Source of the DNA: Chlamydiales bacterium
Lineage (GTDB): Bacteria > Chlamydiota > Chlamydiia > Chlamydiales > JBDQID01
DNA: 34,179 nt
Reading direction: 5' to 3'
NCBI GenBank assembly: GCA_047611865.1
Contig: JBLFWS010000017.1
Location: 1 to 34,179 of the forward strand
In this document: positions 27,093 through 34,179 of the stretch, piece after piece
Layout of the letters: each line of letters begins with the position of its first letter
Numbering within the stretch: position 1 is the first letter of the stretch
The notes under the pieces: model-generated
Databases searched by the model: none
What the model was told of the DNA's origin: nothing
What the model saw: only the letters and a program-made list of their open reading frames with translations
Position numbers and translations under genes: made by a program

Positions 27093-30000
27093 ATGTCTAT
27101 TCCCCCTATCACTTCACCCATACTAAATATTACTTCTAGGCAAGAAGCAGAATTGGATTCACAGGAAGTTTCCAGTGATATTTCGAACCTTGCAGTTAGA
27201 TCCCCAATGAGTACAAGCAGCCTTCTTTCCGCAGAAACCCTTGCAGCCCTAACCGCCCCTCAGCCCTATACCCCTATCACCGATGAATGTCTGATCCCTA
27301 TATTAACCCCTACATTGTCCGACCGCAAAACAGCTAAAGTCATTCTCCCAAACGGTATTCAAGTATATATCGTTTCAGACCCAAACTTCAAAAAATCAGC
27401 CTGTGCCTTATCCGTCGGAGTAGGAAGCTACGACGATCCTCGTGAATTTGGAGGGCTTGCTCACTTTACAGAACACCTCTCGTTTCTTGGCAGTGCCAGA
27501 TATCCCGGTGACGCTGAATTTGACCAGTTTCTCAGCAGCCACGGAGGATACTCCAACGCCTCTACTCATGATATTTTCACCAACTATTATTTCGATGTAG
27601 ATCATAATTTTTTCCCTGAAGGACTTTCCCGCTTTTCTGACTTCTTTATTCAACCAATTTTTAAAGAATCAGGCATCGCCAAAGAAGTAAACGCTGTCGA
27701 CAACGAATTTACAGAATGCACCCACGAAAACGTATGGGCCAAAGAGTACATTTTGAAAGAACTCTCCAATCCCGCACATCCCGAAACGATATTTGATATA
27801 GGAAACAAACAAAGCCTGGCCAAGATACCCCGTGAAAAAGTGATTGAATGGCATCACGATCACTACAGTTCCAACATCATGAACCTTACCCTATGCTCCT
27901 CTCTTTCCCTCGAAGACATCAAACAACAGCTGTTCCACTTCTCCCAAATTGAAAACAAAAATGTCTCTTTGGAGCGTGTAAGGGAGCCAATACTAAAGCC
28001 TGAATTTGAAGGCTCCAAAATTTTCATCAAGCCCGTACAACAAGAACGAGAGCTCACAATACTTCGGGAGCTACCTTCTGAGTTCGCCTCTATAAAAGGC
28101 TCTTCCCCTCACGATACCCTGGCAACTATTTTGGGAGATGAATCCCAAAATAGCCTCCTGGAACAACTAAAACGTGAAGATCTTGCAGAGGAACTTTCTG
28201 CCGGAGGAGAAAAGAAAGGAGATCACAGCCTATTTTTCAGGATTAACATCTCCCTTACCGAAAAAGGCCTACAAAATATTGACACCGTCATTGAGCGGTG
28301 CTTTCAAGCTATCAAAAGCTTTAAGTCCTTACCCGAGGGAATCCCTCAATATGTTTTTGATGAAGGGAAAAGTCTTTCTACTCTCAATTACCAACTACAA
28401 TCTTTTTCAAATGCCAGCACCTGTGCAGAAAGCGCTTCTTCATGTCTCGTTCGCCACGAATTAAGCACTTATCCTGAAACTCCTTTTATCCCTCAAAGTT
28501 TTAACAAGGAGGCTTGTCAAGCTCTCTTAGAAAGCTTACTACCCGAACGATGCCTTTATATGATCAGCTGTGATCCAGACGAACTAGGTGTCACTGAAGC
28601 TGAACAAGCAAATTGGAAAGAAGAAAAGTGGATGAAGACAAAATTTGACATCCAGCCTGTTAGCGCAGAAACCCTCTCTCTCTGGAATGAAGCAATCGCA
28701 CATCCCTCCATCACCGTTGCTCCACCAAACCCTTTCATACCTACAAATTTTTCCATTCGAGGGAGTACAGAATCTGTAGAAGCCAACGAACCAGAACTCA
28801 TCATCAATGAAGAAAAAGGCTCCCTACATTTCAAACAGGACCAAACCTTTCTCACCCCCAAGTTGTTCGAACAGTATAGCCTTATCACTCCTACCCTAGA
28901 CTCCAGCAACACAAAAGCTCGTCTATTAGCAAGCCTATATTTAACAGGCCTCAATGAATCTCTAAACCCTCTCATGTATCAAGCTAGTGCATCAGGACTT
29001 GATTCGTCGGGCTTCGTTCTTAGTGGTAAAGGAATAGAATTATGCATCAGCGGATATAACGATAAGGCAGAAGTTTTCCTTGAAAACATGCTACAAGCCT
29101 TTTCCCAAGAGCTTTTCAGCCAAGAAAAATTCGAGTCATATAAAAGTTCCATGATGATGGAGCTACGCAGTGATCTTCAAGAAAGTCCCATGGCACAAGC
29201 CTCCCAAGAGCTTGCTCAACTTCTTTACGAATATGCTCCAAGTATAAAGCGCCAGTTGAAAATATTGTCTAAACTTCAGTATGAGGATCTCCAGACACTA
29301 CTCCCAAAGATCTTTAGCAAATCTTACCTTCAGGCTCTATCCTATGGCAACGTCACTAGAGAAGAAGCCGTTTCTAAATATCAAAAGTTCCAACTAGGCC
29401 TTGTAGGTCACGAGCCATATCTCAAAGAAAGTCATCGTCGTAAAAGAACCCTTTGTCTTCCAGAAGGTATGCAGCCTGCTTTCAAAAGGAGAAAAGTCGA
29501 TGTAGATGGAAACGCAGCCATTCTCCTTACAAGCCAGGGACCCTATAGTCCAAAAAACCGCGCCGTACAAATGATCCTCTTACACCTTTTAGAAAACCCT
29601 CTTTATGACAGGCTAAGAACACAGCTAGGCCTTGCTTATCAAGTATATCCCAAACCCTTAAGAGTTGGAGACGAACTCTACAATAGCTTCAACATTTCAT
29701 CGAATACACACAAAGGCCGAGAACTCACCACTCTTTTACAAATGGTTCTCGATCAATTCATTAGTGAGTTAAGCACAGAGGAAAAAGGGCTCAGCCAAGA
29801 AAATTTTGAGCAACACAAACACGGTTTACTTCAATCTCTAAATGAAACCGGTAGTTTAGGCAGAAAGGGGCAAGAATACGCTGGTGAACTAAACACCAGT
29901 CCCCCTGATTTTGCCAGAAAACAAAAGCTCATACAGGAAATCAAAGATCTGGAACTGGATGACTTTGTTCAATTAGCCAAAGAAAGCCTCGGCAGACATA

Positions 30001-30116
30001 TGAAAAAACGCGTCGCCATCGCCTGCGATGGGAATACTCCAGCAGATGAAAGACTTAGCTTCAAAAAAGTGGAAAATTTTAAAGGTCTACGCAAAGAGGA
30101 AAACTTCAAGGAATAA
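27093..30116 (+). CDS. ptr: M16A insulinase/pitrilysin-family zinc protease
   Basis: GLAHFTEHLSFLGS (HxxEH), SNAST, KEVNAVDNEF, LRTQLGLAY. RBS AGGAGA. Confidence 0.92.
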   Translation: MSIPPITSPILNITSRQEAELDSQEVSSDISNLAVRSPMSTSSLLSAETLAALTAPQPYTPITDECLIPILTPTLSDRKTAKVILPNGIQVYIVSDPNFKKSACALSVGVGSYDDPREFGGLAHFTEHLSFLGSARYPGDAEFDQFLSSHGGYSNASTHDIFTNYYFDVDHNFFPEGLSRFSDFFIQPIFKESGIAKEVNAVDNEFTECTHENVWAKEYILKELSNPAHPETIFDIGNKQSLAKIPREKVIEWHHDHYSSNIMNLTLCSSLSLEDIKQQLFHFSQIENKNVSLERVREPILKPEFEGSKIFIKPVQQERELTILRELPSEFASIKGSSPHDTLATILGDESQNSLLEQLKREDLAEELSAGGEKKGDHSLFFRINISLTEKGLQNIDTVIERCFQAIKSFKSLPEGIPQYVFDEGKSLSTLNYQLQSFSNASTCAESASSCLVRHELSTYPETPFIPQSFNKEACQALLESLLPERCLYMISCDPDELGVTEAEQANWKEEKWMKTKFDIQPVSAETLSLWNEAIAHPSITVAPPNPFIPTNFSIRGSTESVEANEPELIINEEKGSLHFKQDQTFLTPKLFEQYSLITPTLDSSNTKARLLASLYLTGLNESLNPLMYQASASGLDSSGFVLSGKGIELCISGYNDKAEVFLENMLQAFSQELFSQEKFESYKSSMMMELRSDLQESPMAQASQELAQLLYEYAPSIKRQLKILSKLQYEDLQTLLPKIFSKSYLQALSYGNVTREEAVSKYQKFQLGLVGHEPYLKESHRRKRTLCLPEGMQPAFKRRKVDVDGNAAILLTSQGPYSPKNRAVQMILLHLLENPLYDRLRTQLGLAYQVYPKPLRVGDELYNSFNISSNTHKGRELTTLLQMVLDQFISELSTEEKGLSQENFEQHKHGLLQSLNETGSLGRKGQEYAGELNTSPPDFARKQKLIQEIKDLELDDFVQLAKESLGRHMKKRVAIACDGNTPADERLSFKKVENFKGLRKEENFKE

Positions 30117-30130
30117 TCTATATTTACCAA

Positions 30131-30170
30131 GGATGTTTTCATTACAACGAGAGCTGTCGTGAAAACATCC
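30131..30170. terminator. Stem-loop after ptr
   Basis: Perfect 11-bp inverted repeat GGATGTTTTCA / TGAAAACATCC starting 14 nt after the stop. There is no plus-strand U-tract. Confidence 0.5.
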
Positions 30171-30214
30171 CTGTAAAAAAAGACTTCGCTGCATTAACAA
30201 TGCATTACTTTAAA

Positions 30215-30319
30215 ATGCTCTTCACCGGAGAATTCTCGAAGCACTTTGTAGAGGGTATGGCAAAAATCTATGAGCCTAAACCCTTTATCGATGTCCATTC
30301 TCACACCCCAGACAATTGA
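30215..30319 (+). repeat. att-like direct repeat, copy 1 (shortest, outermost)
   Basis: Shares CACCGGA...TCGA..CACTTTGT.GAGGG.ATGGC.AAAAT.TATGAGC.TAAAC.CTTTATCGATGTCC with copies 2 and 3. Translates as MLFTGEFSKHFVEGMAKIYEPKPFIDVHSHTPDN*. Confidence 0.9.
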
Positions 30320-30491
30320 GAAAACCCCAACCCAAAAAAAGGGATGGTTCAGAAAGAGGCTTTTTTAGGTAACAAAAAGGGTTGTGGGATCATGCCGTTA
30401 AAATATGTCTAATTGCCAAAATTGCGAAGGCTAAATCGAGAAAAGTAAAGCTATGCTTAAGCTACCTGTTCTTGAAGTATTGGAGAGGTGC

Positions 30492-30614
30492 CACTACCGT
30501 GGCTATTAGGAGTTATCCATAGCCGGCTTATTCAAATTAGCTAATAATGGGATAATTTTATTTCTTTGTTGGAGAGGGGTGTATAGGTGATTTCTTCTTA
30601 AGGCCACGGTAGTG
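30492..30614. repeat. Inverted-repeat-bounded ~120-bp element (REP/MITE-like)
   Basis: Perfect 12-bp inverted repeat CACTACCGTGGC (30492-30503) / GCCACGGTAGTG (30603-30614), with weaker pairing on both sides. Confidence 0.55.
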
Positions 30615-30629
30615 ATCTTCCCTCTTGAT

Positions 30630-30753
30630 AGCCCCGTGCTTTAGCTCGGGGATAGGAAAAAAAGAGCACTCATCGGAACAGTTATATCGCCGCTTTAAAA
30701 GACGCTGACATTGGAAGTTATGAGGCCTTATAGATCATGGCGCTAAAGCCCCC
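30630..30753. repeat. IS200/IS605-end-like or REP-like hairpin
   Basis: AGCCCCGTGCTTTAGCTCGGGG hairpin (30630-30651) and a complementary GCTAAAGC(CCC) near 30742-30753. Confidence 0.45.
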
Positions 30754-30762
30754 ACATAAAAC

Positions 30763-30799
30763 AAAAAAAAGACTTTCCTGATTACTCAAGTAAGTCTTT
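30763..30799 (-). terminator. Intrinsic terminator directly downstream of the tRNA-like end of repeat copy 2
   Basis: On the minus strand: AAAGACTT-A-CTTGA-[GTAA]-TCAGG-A-AAGTCTTT-TTTTT, a stem with a GNRA loop and a U-tract. Confidence 0.7.
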
Positions 30800-31048
30800 A
30801 TAGTATAAGTGCCCTTCACCGGACAATTATCGAGCCACTTTGTTGAGGGAATGGCCAAAATATATGAGCTTAAACTCTTTATCGATGTCCATTCTCACCA
30901 CACCAAACAACCAAAAAAGTCTCAATCAAGATCAAAAGTCGCAATCTAACAGAGGGAAACACGAAAAACTCCCTTTCTTCCTCCTTTAGAGGAATAGAAC
31001 TTCAGAGAGGGGATTCTCAAGGGCAGATTGTGAAGAATGTTCATAATC
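30787..31048 (+). repeat. att-like direct repeat, copy 2 (~260 bp)
   Basis: Colinear with copy 3 from CAAG.AAGTCTTT.TAGTATAAGTGCCC to AGGAATAGAACTTCAGAGAGGGGATTCT.AAGGG.AGATTGTG. 30809-30949 translates as VPFTGQLSSHFVEGMAKIYELKLFIDVHSH... Confidence 0.92.
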
Positions 31049-31110
31049 CCGCCCTCAAAAATTCTAAGAATAGACTCAAAAGCCATAAATTTTGAGCATA
31101 GCCATATTTA

Positions 31111-31150
31111 TCTGATATAATCTGGTATAATCTGGCATTATCTGGCATGA
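31111..31150 (+). promoter_or_regulatory. Four 10-bp tandem direct repeats (putative operator)
   Basis: TCTGATATAA TCTGGTATAA TCTGGCATTA TCTGGCATGA, overlapping TATAAT hexamers, 23 nt upstream of the AlbA_2 ATG. Confidence 0.6.
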
Positions 31151-31173
31151 CATAGACCACAAAGGGCCAGAAA

Positions 31174-32320
31174 ATGCCGGATATCTCAGAAATTCTTACC
31201 TTTCCTGAGGGGAGAACCCTTGAGTTCAAGCAGGACCTTTCCTCTCTCAAACCAATTATGAAATCATTGGTTGCATTTGCAAATACAGCAGGAGGCATCC
31301 TCATCATCGGCAAGCGTGATGATGGAGAAATAATAGGTGTCCCTGATGTCCTAAAAGCAGAGGAGAAATTAGCCAATGCTATTGCAGACAGCATCTCTCC
31401 CCGATTGATGCCAGAAATAGAAATAGCTTCACATGATGGAGTTTCTTTGCTTGTGCTTAGGGTATCCCACTGGCGTGGCCCATTTTTCCTAAAATCGCAA
31501 GGAGAAGAACAGGGAGTTTACATAAGGCTTGGCTCGACCGATAGACAAGCTGGCCCCGATATTCTCAACGAATTAAAAAGAGCTATCAATAAGGTCTCTT
31601 TCGATGAACTAGCTTGTCCCACATGCGATAAGTCTTCTCTTGGTATGAAAAAAATCGAAACGGAATTCGCCAAAGTCGGGAAAAAGGTCACAAAGAAAAC
31701 TCTGGTATCATTTTATTTGGAAATAGCGATATACGACGTAAATATTTCTCAAATTGCGAAGTACGATGCGCTAGGTTTCAAGGTGAAAATAAAATAGATT
31801 TTATCGACCAGCTTGATATCGAAGGAAGTATTCTCGATGCTTTGACCGAAGTACCAAAGTTCATCAAAAGAAATACCCGATTAGCCGCTTCTATTAAAGG
31901 AACAAAAAGAGTAAACATCCCTGAATATTCTCCTGTGGTCATAAGAGAAATCCTTACGAATGCATTAGCTCATGCCGACTACTCAATCCAAGGGTTGCTA
32001 TTTTCTCCAACCGCATGGAAATCGAAAGCCCTGGCATGTTTCCCTACGGTTATACGCTAGAGAACTTTTTCATAGGTGTAAGCCATGTACGAAATAAGGT
32101 CATCACACGAATTTTACGAGAGCTCAATTTCATGGAGGAGTGGGGAACTGGCTATCAGCGTATATGTGAAACCTGCGAAAAGGAAAACTATCCTGAGCCT
32201 ATCTGGAATGAAGTTGGAGCAGCTATTCAAGTTTCCATTCCTTCTAGAAATACTTCCCAACCCATATCTAAGACAATACAAGATTTAGCATCATATGGCC
32301 TCAGTGTACGACAGCAAGAA
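31174..32320 (+). pseudogene. AlbA_2 (Schlafen-like) / HATPase_c_4 / HTH transcriptional regulator, disrupted
   Basis: EGRTLEFKQ...VAFANTAGG and IRLGST. Frame change at ~31704 into GIILFG...EVRCARFQG...REILTNALAHADYS, second frame change at ~31993 into VAIFSNRMEIESPG...EEWGTG, then cut after LSVRQQE by repeat copy 3. Confidence 0.88.
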
Positions 32321-32580
32321 AGTCTTTTTAGTATAAGTGCCCTCCACCGGACAATTATCGAACCACTTTGTAGAGGGTATGGCCAAAATCTATGAGCTTA
32401 AACCCTTTATCGATGTCCCTTATCACCGTCACAAGGACTGGGGGAAACTCCAATCAGGATCAAAATAGGAATCTGACTGAGGAAAAAACAGAAAACGCTC
32501 TCTTTGACTACTCCCTATCCAGGAATAGAACTTCAGAGAGGGGATTCTTAAGGGGAGATTGTGGGAAATGTTGATAAATC
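32315..32580 (+). repeat. att-like direct repeat, copy 3 (~265 bp)
   Basis: Colinear with copy 2. 32337-32468 translates as VPSTGQLSNHFVEGMAKIYELKPFIDVPYH... The minus strand of 32337-32364 reads GGTTCGA-TAATT-GTCCGGTGGAGGGCAC. Confidence 0.92.
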
Positions 32581-32598
32581 TACGTATCTTTCGAGTAT

Positions 32599-32730
32599 TT
32601 GACATTTTTCCTCTAAAGTACTAATCTTATTAGTACCTTAGAGGGAATATATCAACTTGCCTTAAGTAAATACTTGAACATTTTCTTTAAAAGTACTAAT
32701 ATTATTAGTACCTTAGAAGAAATTTACCAA
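32599..32730 (+). promoter_or_regulatory. abiE promoter with two palindromic operators
   Basis: TTGACA-N17-TAATCT (32599-32627). Palindromic cores AAGTACTAAT(C/A)TTATTAGTACCTT at 32616-32639 and 32691-32714, 75 bp apart, each inside a ~57-bp imperfect palindrome. Confidence 0.85.
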
Positions 32731-32739
32731 GTGCTCCTG

Positions 32740-33552
32740 ATGTTTTTTCAAAGTTTTTTCACCAACCGTCAAATATTCACTACCGAGGAAGTGCGGAATA
32801 TTATTTCTTCCAACAAAGATAAAAGCACACTAAAAAATTTGATGACCTATCACTTAAATAAAGGGCACATCATTCGCATCCGTCGTGCCCTTTACTACGT
32901 AGTTCCAAAAGGAATTACCCCAGAAAGTAGCCCAGTCGATCCTTATCTTATTTGTAGCAAAATGGCATCCGATGCTTTACTAGGATATCACACTGCATTA
33001 GCCTATTTTGGGAAATTGCATTCAATACGAAATGATTTTATTTACATTACTCAACAAAAAGTAAAGTCCCCTTTTTCCTTTCGAGAAGAAACCTACCAAG
33101 GAGTATCTCTACCCAAAAAATTACAACAATCCAAAGTCATGGATCTCGGTGTTCAAACTTGCCATCATCTCAGCCATCAAATACGGGTAACCAGCCTTGA
33201 GCGTACTTTCATTGATGTACTTGACCGCCCAGCACTTGTCGGGGACTGGGAGGAAATTTGGCGATCGCTAGAAAGTATTGAATATTTAGATCTTGATCAA
33301 GTGCTAACTTATGCCTTGTCACTTGGCAATGCCACCACGATCGCTAAAGCTGGATTTTTTCTAGAAATGCATCAGGAGAACCTAATGATTCCTGATCAAT
33401 TTCTAAAAAAACTCTCCACACACTGCCCCCTAAAACCCCATTACTTAGACCGCCACACTAATGAACCTCAAAAACTCATGAAACGATGGAAACTCATCGT
33501 TCCACAACACCTTCTGCAACGCAATTGGGAAGAACCACATGAAAATATCTAG
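32740..33552 (+). CDS. abiEi: Type IV toxin-antitoxin antitoxin, AbiEi family
   Basis: wHTH IFTTEEV...GHIIRIRRALY, LGYHTALAYFG, RVTSLERTFIDVLDRP. The ATG at 32740 is preferred because the longer ORF-track start lies inside the second operator. Confidence 0.85.
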   Translation: MFFQSFFTNRQIFTTEEVRNIISSNKDKSTLKNLMTYHLNKGHIIRIRRALYYVVPKGITPESSPVDPYLICSKMASDALLGYHTALAYFGKLHSIRNDFIYITQQKVKSPFSFREETYQGVSLPKKLQQSKVMDLGVQTCHHLSHQIRVTSLERTFIDVLDRPALVGDWEEIWRSLESIEYLDLDQVLTYALSLGNATTIAKAGFFLEMHQENLMIPDQFLKKLSTHCPLKPHYLDRHTNEPQKLMKRWKLIVPQHLLQRNWEEPHENI

Positions 33553-33953
33553 AGAAAGACTCCTAAAAGAAGCTGCGTTAACAGGATTTCGCCCTGAAAT
33601 ACTCGAAAAAGTTTGGTGCTTAATGGTATTAATGCTCACCCGTTTCTCCAAGAATGCTTAACGCTCAAAGGTGGAACAGCTCTTAATTTATTTGTTTTTG
33701 ACCTCCCTCGATTATCCGTAGACATTGACCTTAATTACATAGGTAAAGTTGATCGAGAATCCATGGTAAAAGACCGCCCAAAAGTTGAGAAAGCATTAGA
33801 AGCAGTCTTTAATAGGGAAGATATGAAAATTCGACGCATTCCCCAAAAGCATGCTGGTGGAAAATGGCAGCTTCAATATAACAGTGCTCTTGGTCACGGT
33901 GGAAACTTAGAAGTAGATCTCAACTTCATGTTTCGAATTCCTTTATGGGAAGT
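33539..33953 (+). pseudogene. abiEii: AbiEii/AbiGii nucleotidyltransferase toxin, frameshifted and truncated
   Basis: The ATG at 33539 overlaps the antitoxin end and reads MKISRERLLKEAALTGFRPEILEKVW. The frame changes at ~33616 into VLNGINAHPFL..LKGGTALNLF..PRLSVDIDLNY. Similarity ends after RIPLWE. Confidence 0.88.
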
Positions 33954-34179
33954 GCTATTGCCGACTCCATTGAGCCGTTTTTCACCCCCAATATCCAGCT
34001 AGTCACCTGGAGAAAAAGAGACCTTTTAATTATTAATGTCCCCCACTCTATAGGCCCTTATTATCTCAAATCTAAAGGAGAAGTTAATAGTACTTTCATA
34101 AGGCTTGGTTCCACAAACCGCTTAGCTGATGGAATGATGATTGAGAATATAAAAAGGTTAAAGCAACACCTCTACTACG
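33954..34179 (+). pseudogene. 5'-truncated fragment of a second AlbA_2-family gene, running off the window end
   Basis: An open frame absent from the ORF track reads AIADSIEPFFTPNIQLVTWRKRDLLIINVPHSIGPYYLKSKGEVNSTFIRLGSTNRLAD. It aligns with AIADSISPRLMPEIEIASHDGVSLLVLRVSHWRGPFFLKSQGEEQGVYIRLGSTDRQAG in the 31174 gene. Confidence 0.85.

Follow-up and report, generated by a model that had tools for sequence, protein, structure and literature searches.

Tail-bearing tRNA-mimic repeats on a chlamydial contig as probable remnants of large serine recombinase elements stacked at a tRNA gene

The DNA considered here is a stretch of 34,179 nucleotides from a Chlamydiales bacterium (assembly GCA_047611865.1, contig JBLFWS010000017.1), which makes up the entire contig C17 of its genome and is called the window below; the bin has 3.59 Mb in 272 contigs and a contamination of 2.5%. 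Towards its end the window holds a row of three repeats, each of which reads on one strand like the 3' end of a tRNA and on the other as a short conserved peptide, the tail, and the question is how this row is related to a large serine recombinase (LSR) encoded elsewhere in the same genome. The row adjoins an M16 peptidase gene (27093-30116), which has an inverted repeat of its own at 30123-30178. In the lines that follow, attP stands for the attachment site that a free element would carry, P and P' for its two arms, and B and B' for the arms of the chromosomal target site, attB; the labels C17, C94 and C45 denote contigs of this genome, G numbers related genomes, L numbers loci, P numbers protein fragments and X1-X3 public runs. 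The features of the row are these:

30165-30214, minus strand: decayed remnant of the segment that precedes copy 1 (A-run and hairpin arms), a putative P-arm or terminator module
30200-30319, plus strand: tail reading frame of copy 1, 39 amino acids (aa), profile match with E 1.7e-24
30215-30242, plus strand: putative P'-type half attachment site of copy 1, an antisense tRNA 3'-end mimic (xTGCT.. CCGGA-N6-TCGAAG)
30341-30665, unstranded: dispersed repeat of 325 nt, like a miniature inverted-repeat transposable element (MITE), inserted after copy 1
30762-30808, minus strand: putative P-arm module of copy 2, hairpin and run of 8 U (-13.1 kcal/mol, z -3.0)
30809-30836, plus strand: putative P'-type half attachment site of copy 2 (GTGCC.. 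CCGGA-N6-TCGAG)
30809-30949, plus strand: tail reading frame of copy 2, 46 aa, the most complete copy, its last residues ..SKVAI being similar to ..YKRAV and ..KAI in relatives
30983-31046, unstranded: second conserved non-coding block, unit 2, about 35-50 nt past the stop codon of the tail
31174-32310, plus strand: cargo of unit 2, an AlbA_2 and HATPase_c_4 pseudogene, frameshifted, its C-terminus cut off by unit 3
32315-32336, minus strand: truncated putative P arm of copy 3, of which the tRNA-proximal hairpin arm alone remains; no fold
32337-32364, plus strand: putative P'-type half attachment site of copy 3 (GTGCC.. CCGGA-N6-TCGAACC)
32337-32468, plus strand: tail reading frame of copy 3, 43 aa
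32514-32577, unstranded: second conserved block, unit 3
32674-33552, plus strand: cargo of unit 3, AbiEi (Pfam PF09407)
33539-34002, plus strand: cargo of unit 3, AbiEii (Pfam PF08843, model positions 3-112 of 238), frameshifted and truncated
33945-34179, plus strand: piece of AlbA_2 (model positions 62-117 of 118) joined to what is left of AbiEii

The original prediction, made from the letters of the window alone, had described three diverged direct repeats, and a repeat search of the window bears this out: there is one family with copies at 30193-30305, 30787-30899 (the reference) and 32315-32427, copy 1 being 74% and copy 3 91% identical to the middle one. The full extents of the repeats are 30213-30319, 30787-31046 and 32315-32577. 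Copies 2 and 3 can be regarded as units of about 260 nt, since they also have the second block in common (86% identical between the two), and blastn aligns them at 81% over 260 nt. Copy 1 has the most diverged half-site of the three; positions 30175-30191 in its upstream segment, which directly follows the inverted repeat of the peptidase gene, are 88% identical to 30764-30780 upstream of copy 2, and the segment has no stable hairpin left (z +0.57). One plus-strand frame is open in all three copies, as had also been predicted, with 21 invariant alignment columns. No further DNA copy was found by blastn in the 272 contigs, which gave just chance matches of 15-18 nt (E >= 0.07), and no further peptide copy by tblastn with the three peptides (next-best E 0.34); a profile search of the genome matched three places. 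At family level, where the sample consisted of one other genome, the DNA search gave no match. ARAGORN calls no tRNA gene in the window and no Rfam family matches anywhere along it, while a Sigma-70 scan returns 7 promoter-like sites against 6.0 expected. Minus-strand open reading frames (ORFs) through the tails were rejected because the variable sites sit at their first codon positions, and one through the second block because relatives carry a stop codon in it.

What does the repeat imitate? The minus-strand string that had been read as a T-loop, T-stem and acceptor strand is the exact reverse complement of 32337-32366, and the reading holds: the repeat copies, in antisense, the acceptor and T-arm of genes of the tRNA-Leu type, always with 5 nt inserted. 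It agrees with the antisense 3' end of the same genome's tRNA-Leu(CAA) gene at 18 of 23 positions once the one insertion is allowed for, and in relatives, with the same insertion, the agreement is 22 of 22. The mimic is neither a cloverleaf nor a contiguous copy of a tRNA; it covers the 3'-terminal ~23 nt, and the insertion breaks the T-loop. The spacing is strict. CCGGA-N6-TCGAAC is present in 36 of 36 tails among those listed, and N1 takes the place of N6 at all 29 tRNA junctions. In the published structural work on serine integrases (Rutherford et al. 2013, PMC3783163), the zinc-ribbon (ZD) motif of attB is placed 5 bp closer to the centre than that of attP; the insertion fits this published rule, since tails have N6 and tRNAs N1. 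Closer to the presumed centre, tails share xTGCC with Leu and Thr tRNAs. The two tRNA-Phe islands have TGGC instead, in the tRNA and in two of three tails (the third is not matched by the pattern and its centre was not read), and TGGC is found in no other tail among those listed.

Could these be the scars of tyrosine integrases, that is, plain partial copies of tRNA 3' ends flanking islands? PMC4701971 presents tRNA targeting as a property of tyrosine integrases, and the open-access literature that was searched gives protein genes or intergenic sites as the targets of serine integrases; in relatives, position and orientation with respect to the tRNA are those of tyrosine-integrase islands. Nevertheless the tRNA copy is never exact, as the 36 tails with their insertion show, its acceptor part is often unlike the local tRNA (at L056, for example), a conserved coding frame runs on for ~100 nt past the tRNA-like part, and the recombinase that abuts the tRNA is of the serine type at 29 of 30 loci. 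We regard a tyrosine-integrase origin as extremely improbable.

The genome encodes one LSR, of 572 aa, on the minus strand of C94 (8846-7128). It has the domains Resolvase (PF00239, 2.9e-29), Recombinase (PF07508, 1.7e-08) and Zn_ribbon_recom (PF13408, 6.7e-06), the same three as the LSR of L056, and it matches the integrase group phrog_95 (7.9e-62). Its gene runs antisense straight through tRNA-Leu(CAA) (C94:7203-7286), so that ..SEKVSGDVP is followed in the protein by KAGLEP.., translated from the antisense strand of the tRNA's acceptor and T-arm. A plus-strand recombinase running into a minus-strand tRNA had been expected beyond position 34179; that arrangement exists on C94 and at related loci, and what follows 34179 is a fourth tail instead. 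In the phylum sample, 29 of the 30 best LSR loci have an opposite-strand tRNA at the 3' end of the LSR gene and one locus is without it. The tRNAs are Leu-CAA at 15 loci, Leu-TAG at 6, Phe-GAA at 5, and Leu-TAA, Leu-GAG and Thr-CGT at one each. On the chromosomal side of tRNA-Leu(CAA), nine relatives are syntenic, with TruA, a HAD hydrolase and an M15-like gene. Directly upstream of the LSR and on the same strand, C94 (L057 9054-9956) and ~18 related loci carry a gene for a MerR-type helix-turn-helix (HTH) protein of 270-300 aa, which is a candidate excision or directionality factor.

The association with tRNA genes extends well past the chlamydiae. A scan of species genomes (one genome per species, a tRNA being counted if it lies within 250 nt of the match end) found an opposite-strand tRNA at 62 of 80 LSR loci, none at 15, and 3 loci without room at a contig end, with 18 tRNA species targeted. 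Members of the LSR clade occur in Bacteroidota (Chitinophagaceae, Flavobacteriales and others), Verrucomicrobia, Ignavibacteria and Kapaibacterium. The LSRs of loci L091-L170 are 32-49% identical to the chlamydial one, and their targets include Arg-ACG (14 loci), Leu-CAG (6), Arg-CCT (5), Asn (5) and Glu (4), together with Met, Arg-CCG, Gln, Val, Ala, His and Lys.

Is the tail then a piece of such a recombinase? The peptide search that the prediction had proposed gave, with a profile of the three peptides, 59 places in 49 of 399 other genomes of the phylum (E <= 1e-5), spread over many families. Among 1.84 billion representative proteins the profile has 47 matches, all of 32-195 aa, and no usable match to the tail was found in Pfam, NCBIfam, PHROG or the Protein Atlas families. 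In many copies the amino-acid conservation extends upstream of the apparent start codon into LSR residues. The fragment P0015 aligns to residues 401-525 of the LSR of this genome with 39% identity (E 9e-30), in agreement with the earlier proposal that the repeat is the 3' end of a large-serine-type recombinase gene, and P0015, P0016 and the frames at L020 and L032 are all C-terminal pieces of LSRs. At internal array junctions the C-terminal LSR residues pass into the tail in frame in 11 of 11 cases; none of 33 longer LSR homologues carries the tail, and most of them end in antisense-tRNA residues of the ..GLEPA or ..GFEPA type. These two counts together, 11 junctions in frame and no tail on 33 intact LSRs, argue for an attP that lies inside the 3' end of the LSR gene, with the tail split off on integration.

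Constraint on the tails themselves is of two kinds. In a set of 32 unique tails, the P' arm, which is made up of codons 1-10, has a proportion of synonymous differences (pS) of 0.26 and of non-synonymous differences (pN) of 0.22. For codons 11-28 the values are pS 0.61 and pN 0.20, which gives a ratio of 0.33; all of them are proportions without correction, taken over pairs that are not independent. Certain codons are fixed, namely serine TCG in 31 of 32 tails, glycine GGA in 32 of 32 and asparagine AAC in all 30 that keep the residue. Synonymous sites are frozen in the first ten codons, which points to constraint on the DNA there, and the excess of pS over pN in codons 11-28 is the pattern of a translated sequence, which points to constraint on the protein. 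The simplest reading is that the tail would be joined to the LSR only in the excised form, where it would be translated as part of the LSR, and briefly at new internal junctions, and that the genomic copies are fossils of the excised form.

A free-standing gene of ~45 aa, or a leader or promoter module of defence operons with no tie to recombination, would account for some of this: most copies have an ATG, GTG or TTG start, open frames of 42-74 aa often occur without an LSR stump, the ratio of 0.33 in codons 11-28 is that of a coding gene, a conserved non-coding block follows the tail, and the cargo genes of the window are mostly co-oriented. The xTG, however, is dictated by the tRNA-like TGCC, not by any requirement to start translation (CTG stands there in one tail, GCT in another), conservation does not stop at the supposed start and runs into LSR residues, the synonymous sites of the first ten codons are frozen, and no Pfam, NCBIfam, PHROG or Atlas family covers such a protein. 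We consider an independent small gene or module very unlikely. The second block has a G-rich mirror motif around TTCTAAG and a ATGTTCATAA box, measures ~70 nt and is seen in several lineages; it follows tails in the relatives L028, L017, L049, L042 (twice) and L031 as well, contains no conserved open frame on either strand, and may be a promoter or operator of the element.

The other side of the site, upstream of the tail, has an anatomy of its own. The last ~15 codons of the LSR genes hold an inverted repeat, preceded by an A-run; the arms of the repeat covary from one lineage to another and come in at least five variants. Read on the tRNA strand this becomes, immediately past the tRNA, a hairpin and then a U-run, with -18.4 kcal/mol and z -3.5 on C94 and z -2.4 to -5.6 in three relatives; given that position, the element appears to supply its target tRNA with a terminator. 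The same LSR-end arm holds CCGGA and a TCAGAA motif, 7 nt apart, which is P-type spacing. LSR end plus tail can therefore be read as a pseudo-palindromic attP, and LSR end plus tRNA as a P+B' hybrid. In the window, the P arm of copy 2 aligns with the 3' end of the C94 LSR and looks like what decay has left of the final codons of an LSR gene, in the shape of an intrinsic terminator. Copy 2 is the one copy that runs into a hairpin and U-run on the minus strand; copies 1 and 3 do not. Tails in relatives come in two contexts: some are preceded by LSR coding sequence (P + P', the 11 in-frame cases), and others by a short GC hairpin and A-run without LSR similarity, which correspond to native tRNA terminators (B + P'). 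These contexts are as expected of internal and outermost junctions, respectively, if the sites are read in this way.

How are tails, recombinases and tRNAs arranged in whole genomes? There are 16 genomes in which a single contig carries both a strong tail (E <= 1e-5) and an LSR; in all 16, tail and LSR share a strand, with the tail 2.3-11.5 kb upstream of the LSR (2-13 kb in broader terms). Within the island stretches, tails point at tRNA-Leu(CAA) in six, at tRNA-Phe in two and at tRNA-Thr in one; in two further islands the LSR and tRNA lie just beyond the stretch. Arrays of 2-3 tails, 1-6 kb apart, are present in G320, G361, G167, G071 and G367, next to the three (plus one) of the present organism, and tail types are mixed within the array of G320 and, by way of the fourth tail, in that of the present organism. 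The cargo between tail and LSR or tRNA in relatives consists of AbiEi/AbiEii (many), SocA/Panacea, HipA, PIN with HTH, type I restriction-modification, AAA_21 with RloB, AbiJ and AlbA_2 with HATPase_c_4, alongside hydrolases, a leucine-type biosynthesis cluster and insertion sequence transposases; a defence or toxin-antitoxin (TA) label fits most of it, not all. This cargo and the mixed tail types support the earlier proposal that repeated integration builds an array of defence/TA cassettes. The islands are tycheposon-like, which is a resemblance in behaviour: the site-specific integrase sits beside a tRNA, and older elements and remnants of att sites are stacked farther out.

The cargo of the window itself is worn. 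The AlbA_2 regulator that had been named after copy 2 is there as a frameshifted AlbA_2 and HATPase_c_4 pseudogene, with its two domains (PF04326, 4.3e-21; PF13749, 4.6e-19) in separate frames, and intact homologues of 449 aa exist in L047; the AbiE system named after copy 3 is likewise present, with AbiEii truncated, and AbiEi has homologues in 14 related island loci. Deletions evidently trimmed the units, since the stump of unit 3 truncates the AlbA_2 pseudogene and AbiEii is fused to an AlbA_2 fragment. At 33945-34002 the AbiEii stump overlaps the start of that fragment, a deletion junction inside cargo. Two direct repeats of ~60 nt at 32593-32736, each with the palindrome AAAGTACTAAT.TTATTAGTACCTT, overlap the start of AbiEi; we take them to be candidate operator sites for AbiEi autoregulation. 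What had been described as palindromic debris after copy 1 is something else. The MITE-like repeat at 30341-30665 is matched 81 times by blastn in this genome, over more than 40 contigs and in many cases at contig ends, contains internal inverted repeats (30492-30517 and 30589-30614) and shows 50-100x the contig depth of its flanks in three public runs; it is no cargo of an element. LSR bodies are absent from all units of the window.

How would such a row come about? We think it very probable that the repeats are the leftover ends of LSR elements that inserted successively at a tRNA, with attP in the LSR's own gene. The free circular element would carry attP within the last ~60 codons of the LSR gene, in four parts: a stretch whose opposite strand forms the hairpin and U-run (the P arm); a crossover point, bracketed within the invariant xTGCC, or TGGC for tRNA-Phe elements; a P' arm that copies the antisense acceptor and T-arm of the target tRNA with TCGAAC 5 bp further out; and ~35 more codons of conserved peptide. 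Recombination with the tRNA's 3' end (attB) would split the LSR gene. Its body would stay at the tRNA and read antisense through it, the P arm becoming the new terminator of the tRNA, and the P' arm and peptide tail would land at the far end of the element, ahead of the cargo. Later integrations at the same tRNA would push older elements outward, and the LSR bodies of these would decay or be deleted. The residue would be a row of units, each made of a P-arm stump, a tail and cargo, that grows at its tRNA-proximal end. The window would hold three such units, with a fourth starting at the contig end, abutting the chromosomal M16 peptidase gene.

Several findings sit uneasily with successive LSR insertions. 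In the canonical serine-integrase model, as far as the available sections of PMC3783163 set it out, an incoming attP does not recombine with a resident P+B' site, and growth of the array would need just that pairing; some stacking route nonetheless seems to exist, since mixed arrays occur. A long tail is not general in the clade: in four LSRs a different P' arm brings the protein to a stop after three codons, and relatives on viral contigs stop at once, without a long tail. The terminator that had been proposed for copy 2 stands as a hairpin with U-run, and a consensus scan of 30050-32750 scores 0 terminator-like sites; the P arms of the window are AT-rich and decayed, and that of copy 2 alone folds. 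No contig link from C17 to C94 or to another tRNA contig was achieved, C94 has no tail, and no excised circle or empty site was observed in public contigs. In G380 one strong tail and the LSR are 1.09 Mb apart, and in G100 two tails adjoin tRNA-Leu and tRNA-Phe and there is no LSR at E <= 1e-30. Finally, the window copies are closer to each other than to any relative, a pattern also compatible with local duplication.

That last point deserves to be weighed on its own. Unequal crossing-over or slippage could have duplicated a module of tail and second block in tandem, different genes landing later between the copies; the copies share GMAKIYE.K.FIDV, absent in relatives, are 74-91% alike and have similar upstream modules. 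Yet the cargo between them is unrelated, the fourth copy, which follows the contig end, belongs to the other tail type, both types can stand in one array in relatives, where in-frame LSR stumps are retained upstream of tails, and the graded divergence (26% and 9%) fits events of different age. Tandem duplication is in our estimate unlikely.

Where does the row continue? Public contigs of three runs that hold the window extend past 34179, with a joint from 34179 to 30762 that repeats 30762-30804, and after 30804 they continue as a tail of the other type (group 2), ..PSTGAFSNQF. The fourth tail was not found in the assembly of the present genome. A fourth unit thus appears to begin exactly at the assembly break, since the public contigs carry there an almost identical copy of the P arm of copy 2 and then a tail. 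Single public contigs also diverge from the window, at 32572 right after the block of unit 3 (run X1) and at 31911 inside the AlbA_2 pseudogene (X1-X3); they may be population variants with other cassette content, or paralogues of other organisms. As to the tRNA at which the row would sit, C45 starts with a tRNA-Leu(TAA) 9 nt from its end (C45:1-93), the 3' side of which is unassembled. Its antisense end starts GTGCTC, to be compared with ATGCTC in copy 1 (TGCT in common), and the 9 nt before it resemble the end of the P-arm stumps of the window, which is suggestive only but makes this gene a candidate anchor of the array. The 343-aa ORF at the end of C94 has no AlbA_2 or HATPase match.

Might the units instead be true cassettes, single pieces of tail and cargo that the LSR excises and re-inserts through the tail sites, in the manner of IntI? 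They are short, each is bounded by a site with P and P' arms, and the divergence at 32572 just after the unit 3 block, in a single public contig, is what cassette exchange could leave. A reaction between two P+P' sites is, on the other hand, not among the known serine-integrase reactions in the accessible part of PMC3783163, the LSR stumps within arrays show that units began as whole elements, and the contigs of 4 public runs, which cannot show rare excision, contain no joint that skips a unit. A cassette system in this sense is, we believe, highly improbable. The earlier description of the row as integron-like therefore holds loosely, for a row of units; the units are stumps of whole elements, with no attC cassettes and no cassette-level excision seen. 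As in integrons, short units rich in defence/TA genes are each bounded by a recombination site; unlike integrons, the units here would be remnants of complete elements that grow from the tRNA-proximal side, with a serine-type recombinase and tRNA-mimic sites in place of an IntI-type tyrosine recombinase, attI and attC. None of the 14 window ORFs scanned has an integrase-type domain; no attC-specific model was applied.

Known systems share parts of this picture. In SCC and SCCmec (staphylococcal cassette chromosomes), the Ccr large serine recombinases stack elements in tandem at the 3' end of rlmH, together with defence genes; the ccr genes lie inside the element and do not span the att site, and the target is a protein gene. 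The islands described here are SCC-like in that LSR elements would be stacked at the 3' end of one conserved gene with defence cargo, and differ in that the LSR spans the att site and the target is a tRNA gene. The C94 LSR has weak similarity to CcrB and CcrC and falls below the NCBIfam cut-offs for CcrB (87.2 bits) and CcrC (72.5 bits; cut-off 900) and for XisF (90.4 against 375). The archaeal virus integrases of the SSV1 type have attP within the integrase gene, so that integration into a tRNA gene partitions it; they are tyrosine recombinases and leave an exact tRNA-fragment repeat. Here, by contrast, the C-terminal tail alone would be exchanged and the catalytic body stays whole.

The serine integrase of the Listeria phage A118 type, as treated by Rutherford et al. 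2013 (PMC3783163), has the same Resolvase, Recombinase and Zn-ribbon domains, two site arms with pseudo-dyad symmetry around a short centre, and an outer zinc-ribbon motif whose distance from the centre is 5 bp greater in attP than in attB. Its target is a protein gene or intergenic site, whereas here it is the 3' end of a tRNA gene, known from sequence alone; here, too, attP would lie inside the integrase coding sequence, so that integration alters the C-terminus of the protein, and the P arm would double as tRNA terminator. Tycheposons of Prochlorococcus (Hackl et al., bioRxiv 10.1101/2020.12.28.424599), in so far as the available text describes them, likewise integrate at tRNA genes, newcomers pushing older elements outward, and contain fragmented integrases, partial tRNA copies and adaptive or defensive cargo. 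They mostly have tyrosine recombinases that leave plain partial tRNAs, 27 of 937 carrying a large serine recombinase, and that text describes no attP inside an LSR gene; the chlamydial islands have a modified tRNA mimic fused to a coding tail. Also described are small islands, specific to the strain, that Protochlamydia naegleriophila carries beside tRNA-Leu and tRNA-Thr (PMC5010888) and, among type II integrative and conjugative elements of Elizabethkingia at tRNA-Leu-CAA, a few with serine recombinases (bioRxiv 402107); the main text of a survey of LSR discovery (PMC10083194) does not speak of tRNA. Searches of the open-access literature turned up no account of a serine recombinase whose gene runs into a tRNA gene, nor of an LSR gene that contains attP. 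The novelty lies in the building of tRNA islands by a serine integrase whose attP would be embedded in its own gene.

Can a free form be found? In plasmid and phage collections a tail-bearing fragment has no match, and the LSR finds nothing but Firmicute integrases of ~26% identity, so that these collections yielded no copy in the free form. A metagenome scan with P0056 returned 3 loci and no circular form; one locus is an ordinary LSR-tRNA junction and two belong to another P' class, with a stop after ..GQL. That class is seen at L088:2790-2990 and L089:2670-2870, where after the LSR ends ..AGGAC, 5 nt and TAGAAC (a TAG stop after ..GQL) are followed by an inverted, sense-oriented stretch resembling a tRNA end. 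Viral contigs yielded 9 full-length LSR relatives of 31-33% identity with no tRNA called. On a 60-kb IMG/VR contig (L179:2035-2245) a clade LSR ends in a module of hairpin and A-run, after which come GGGA, 6 nt with a TAA stop and TCGAAC, with no long tail. Several of the viral-contig LSRs, L179 with its P-type spacing among them, look like free attP forms that stop at once, which is only a lead.

What would it mean for the recombinase if the tail is gained and lost in this way? One tentative idea, which we put forward as possible though doubtful, is that the LSR senses its own integration state: only the excised circle would join its body to the ~40-residue tail, and the integrated copy would end in whatever residues the antisense strand of the tRNA happens to encode. 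Should the tail tune activity or directionality, for instance by permitting integration or blocking re-excision, this would be a built-in switch that needs no separate directionality factor, and the relaxed attP x P+B' pairing needed for stacking might depend on the tailed isoform. The clade, with at least 18 tRNA species as targets in Chlamydiota, Verrucomicrobiota, Bacteroidota and Ignavibacteria-type bacteria, would then be a natural library of tRNA-directed serine integrases, for which attP can be derived from the target by a '+5 bp' rule.

Regardless of this idea, successive insertion of LSR elements would make attP readable from genome sequence alone, the P' arm being the tRNA arm plus 5 bp, and would amount to a repeated natural confirmation of the structural model of attP/attB discrimination, with a possible route to the prediction of att sites. 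It would account for a family of short unannotated ORFs in protein databases and offer an example, open to testing, of a recombinase that acquires a different C-terminus when its element integrates. For chlamydiae, which are obligate intracellular bacteria, it would show how small defence/TA islands at tRNA-Leu, tRNA-Phe and tRNA-Thr are built.

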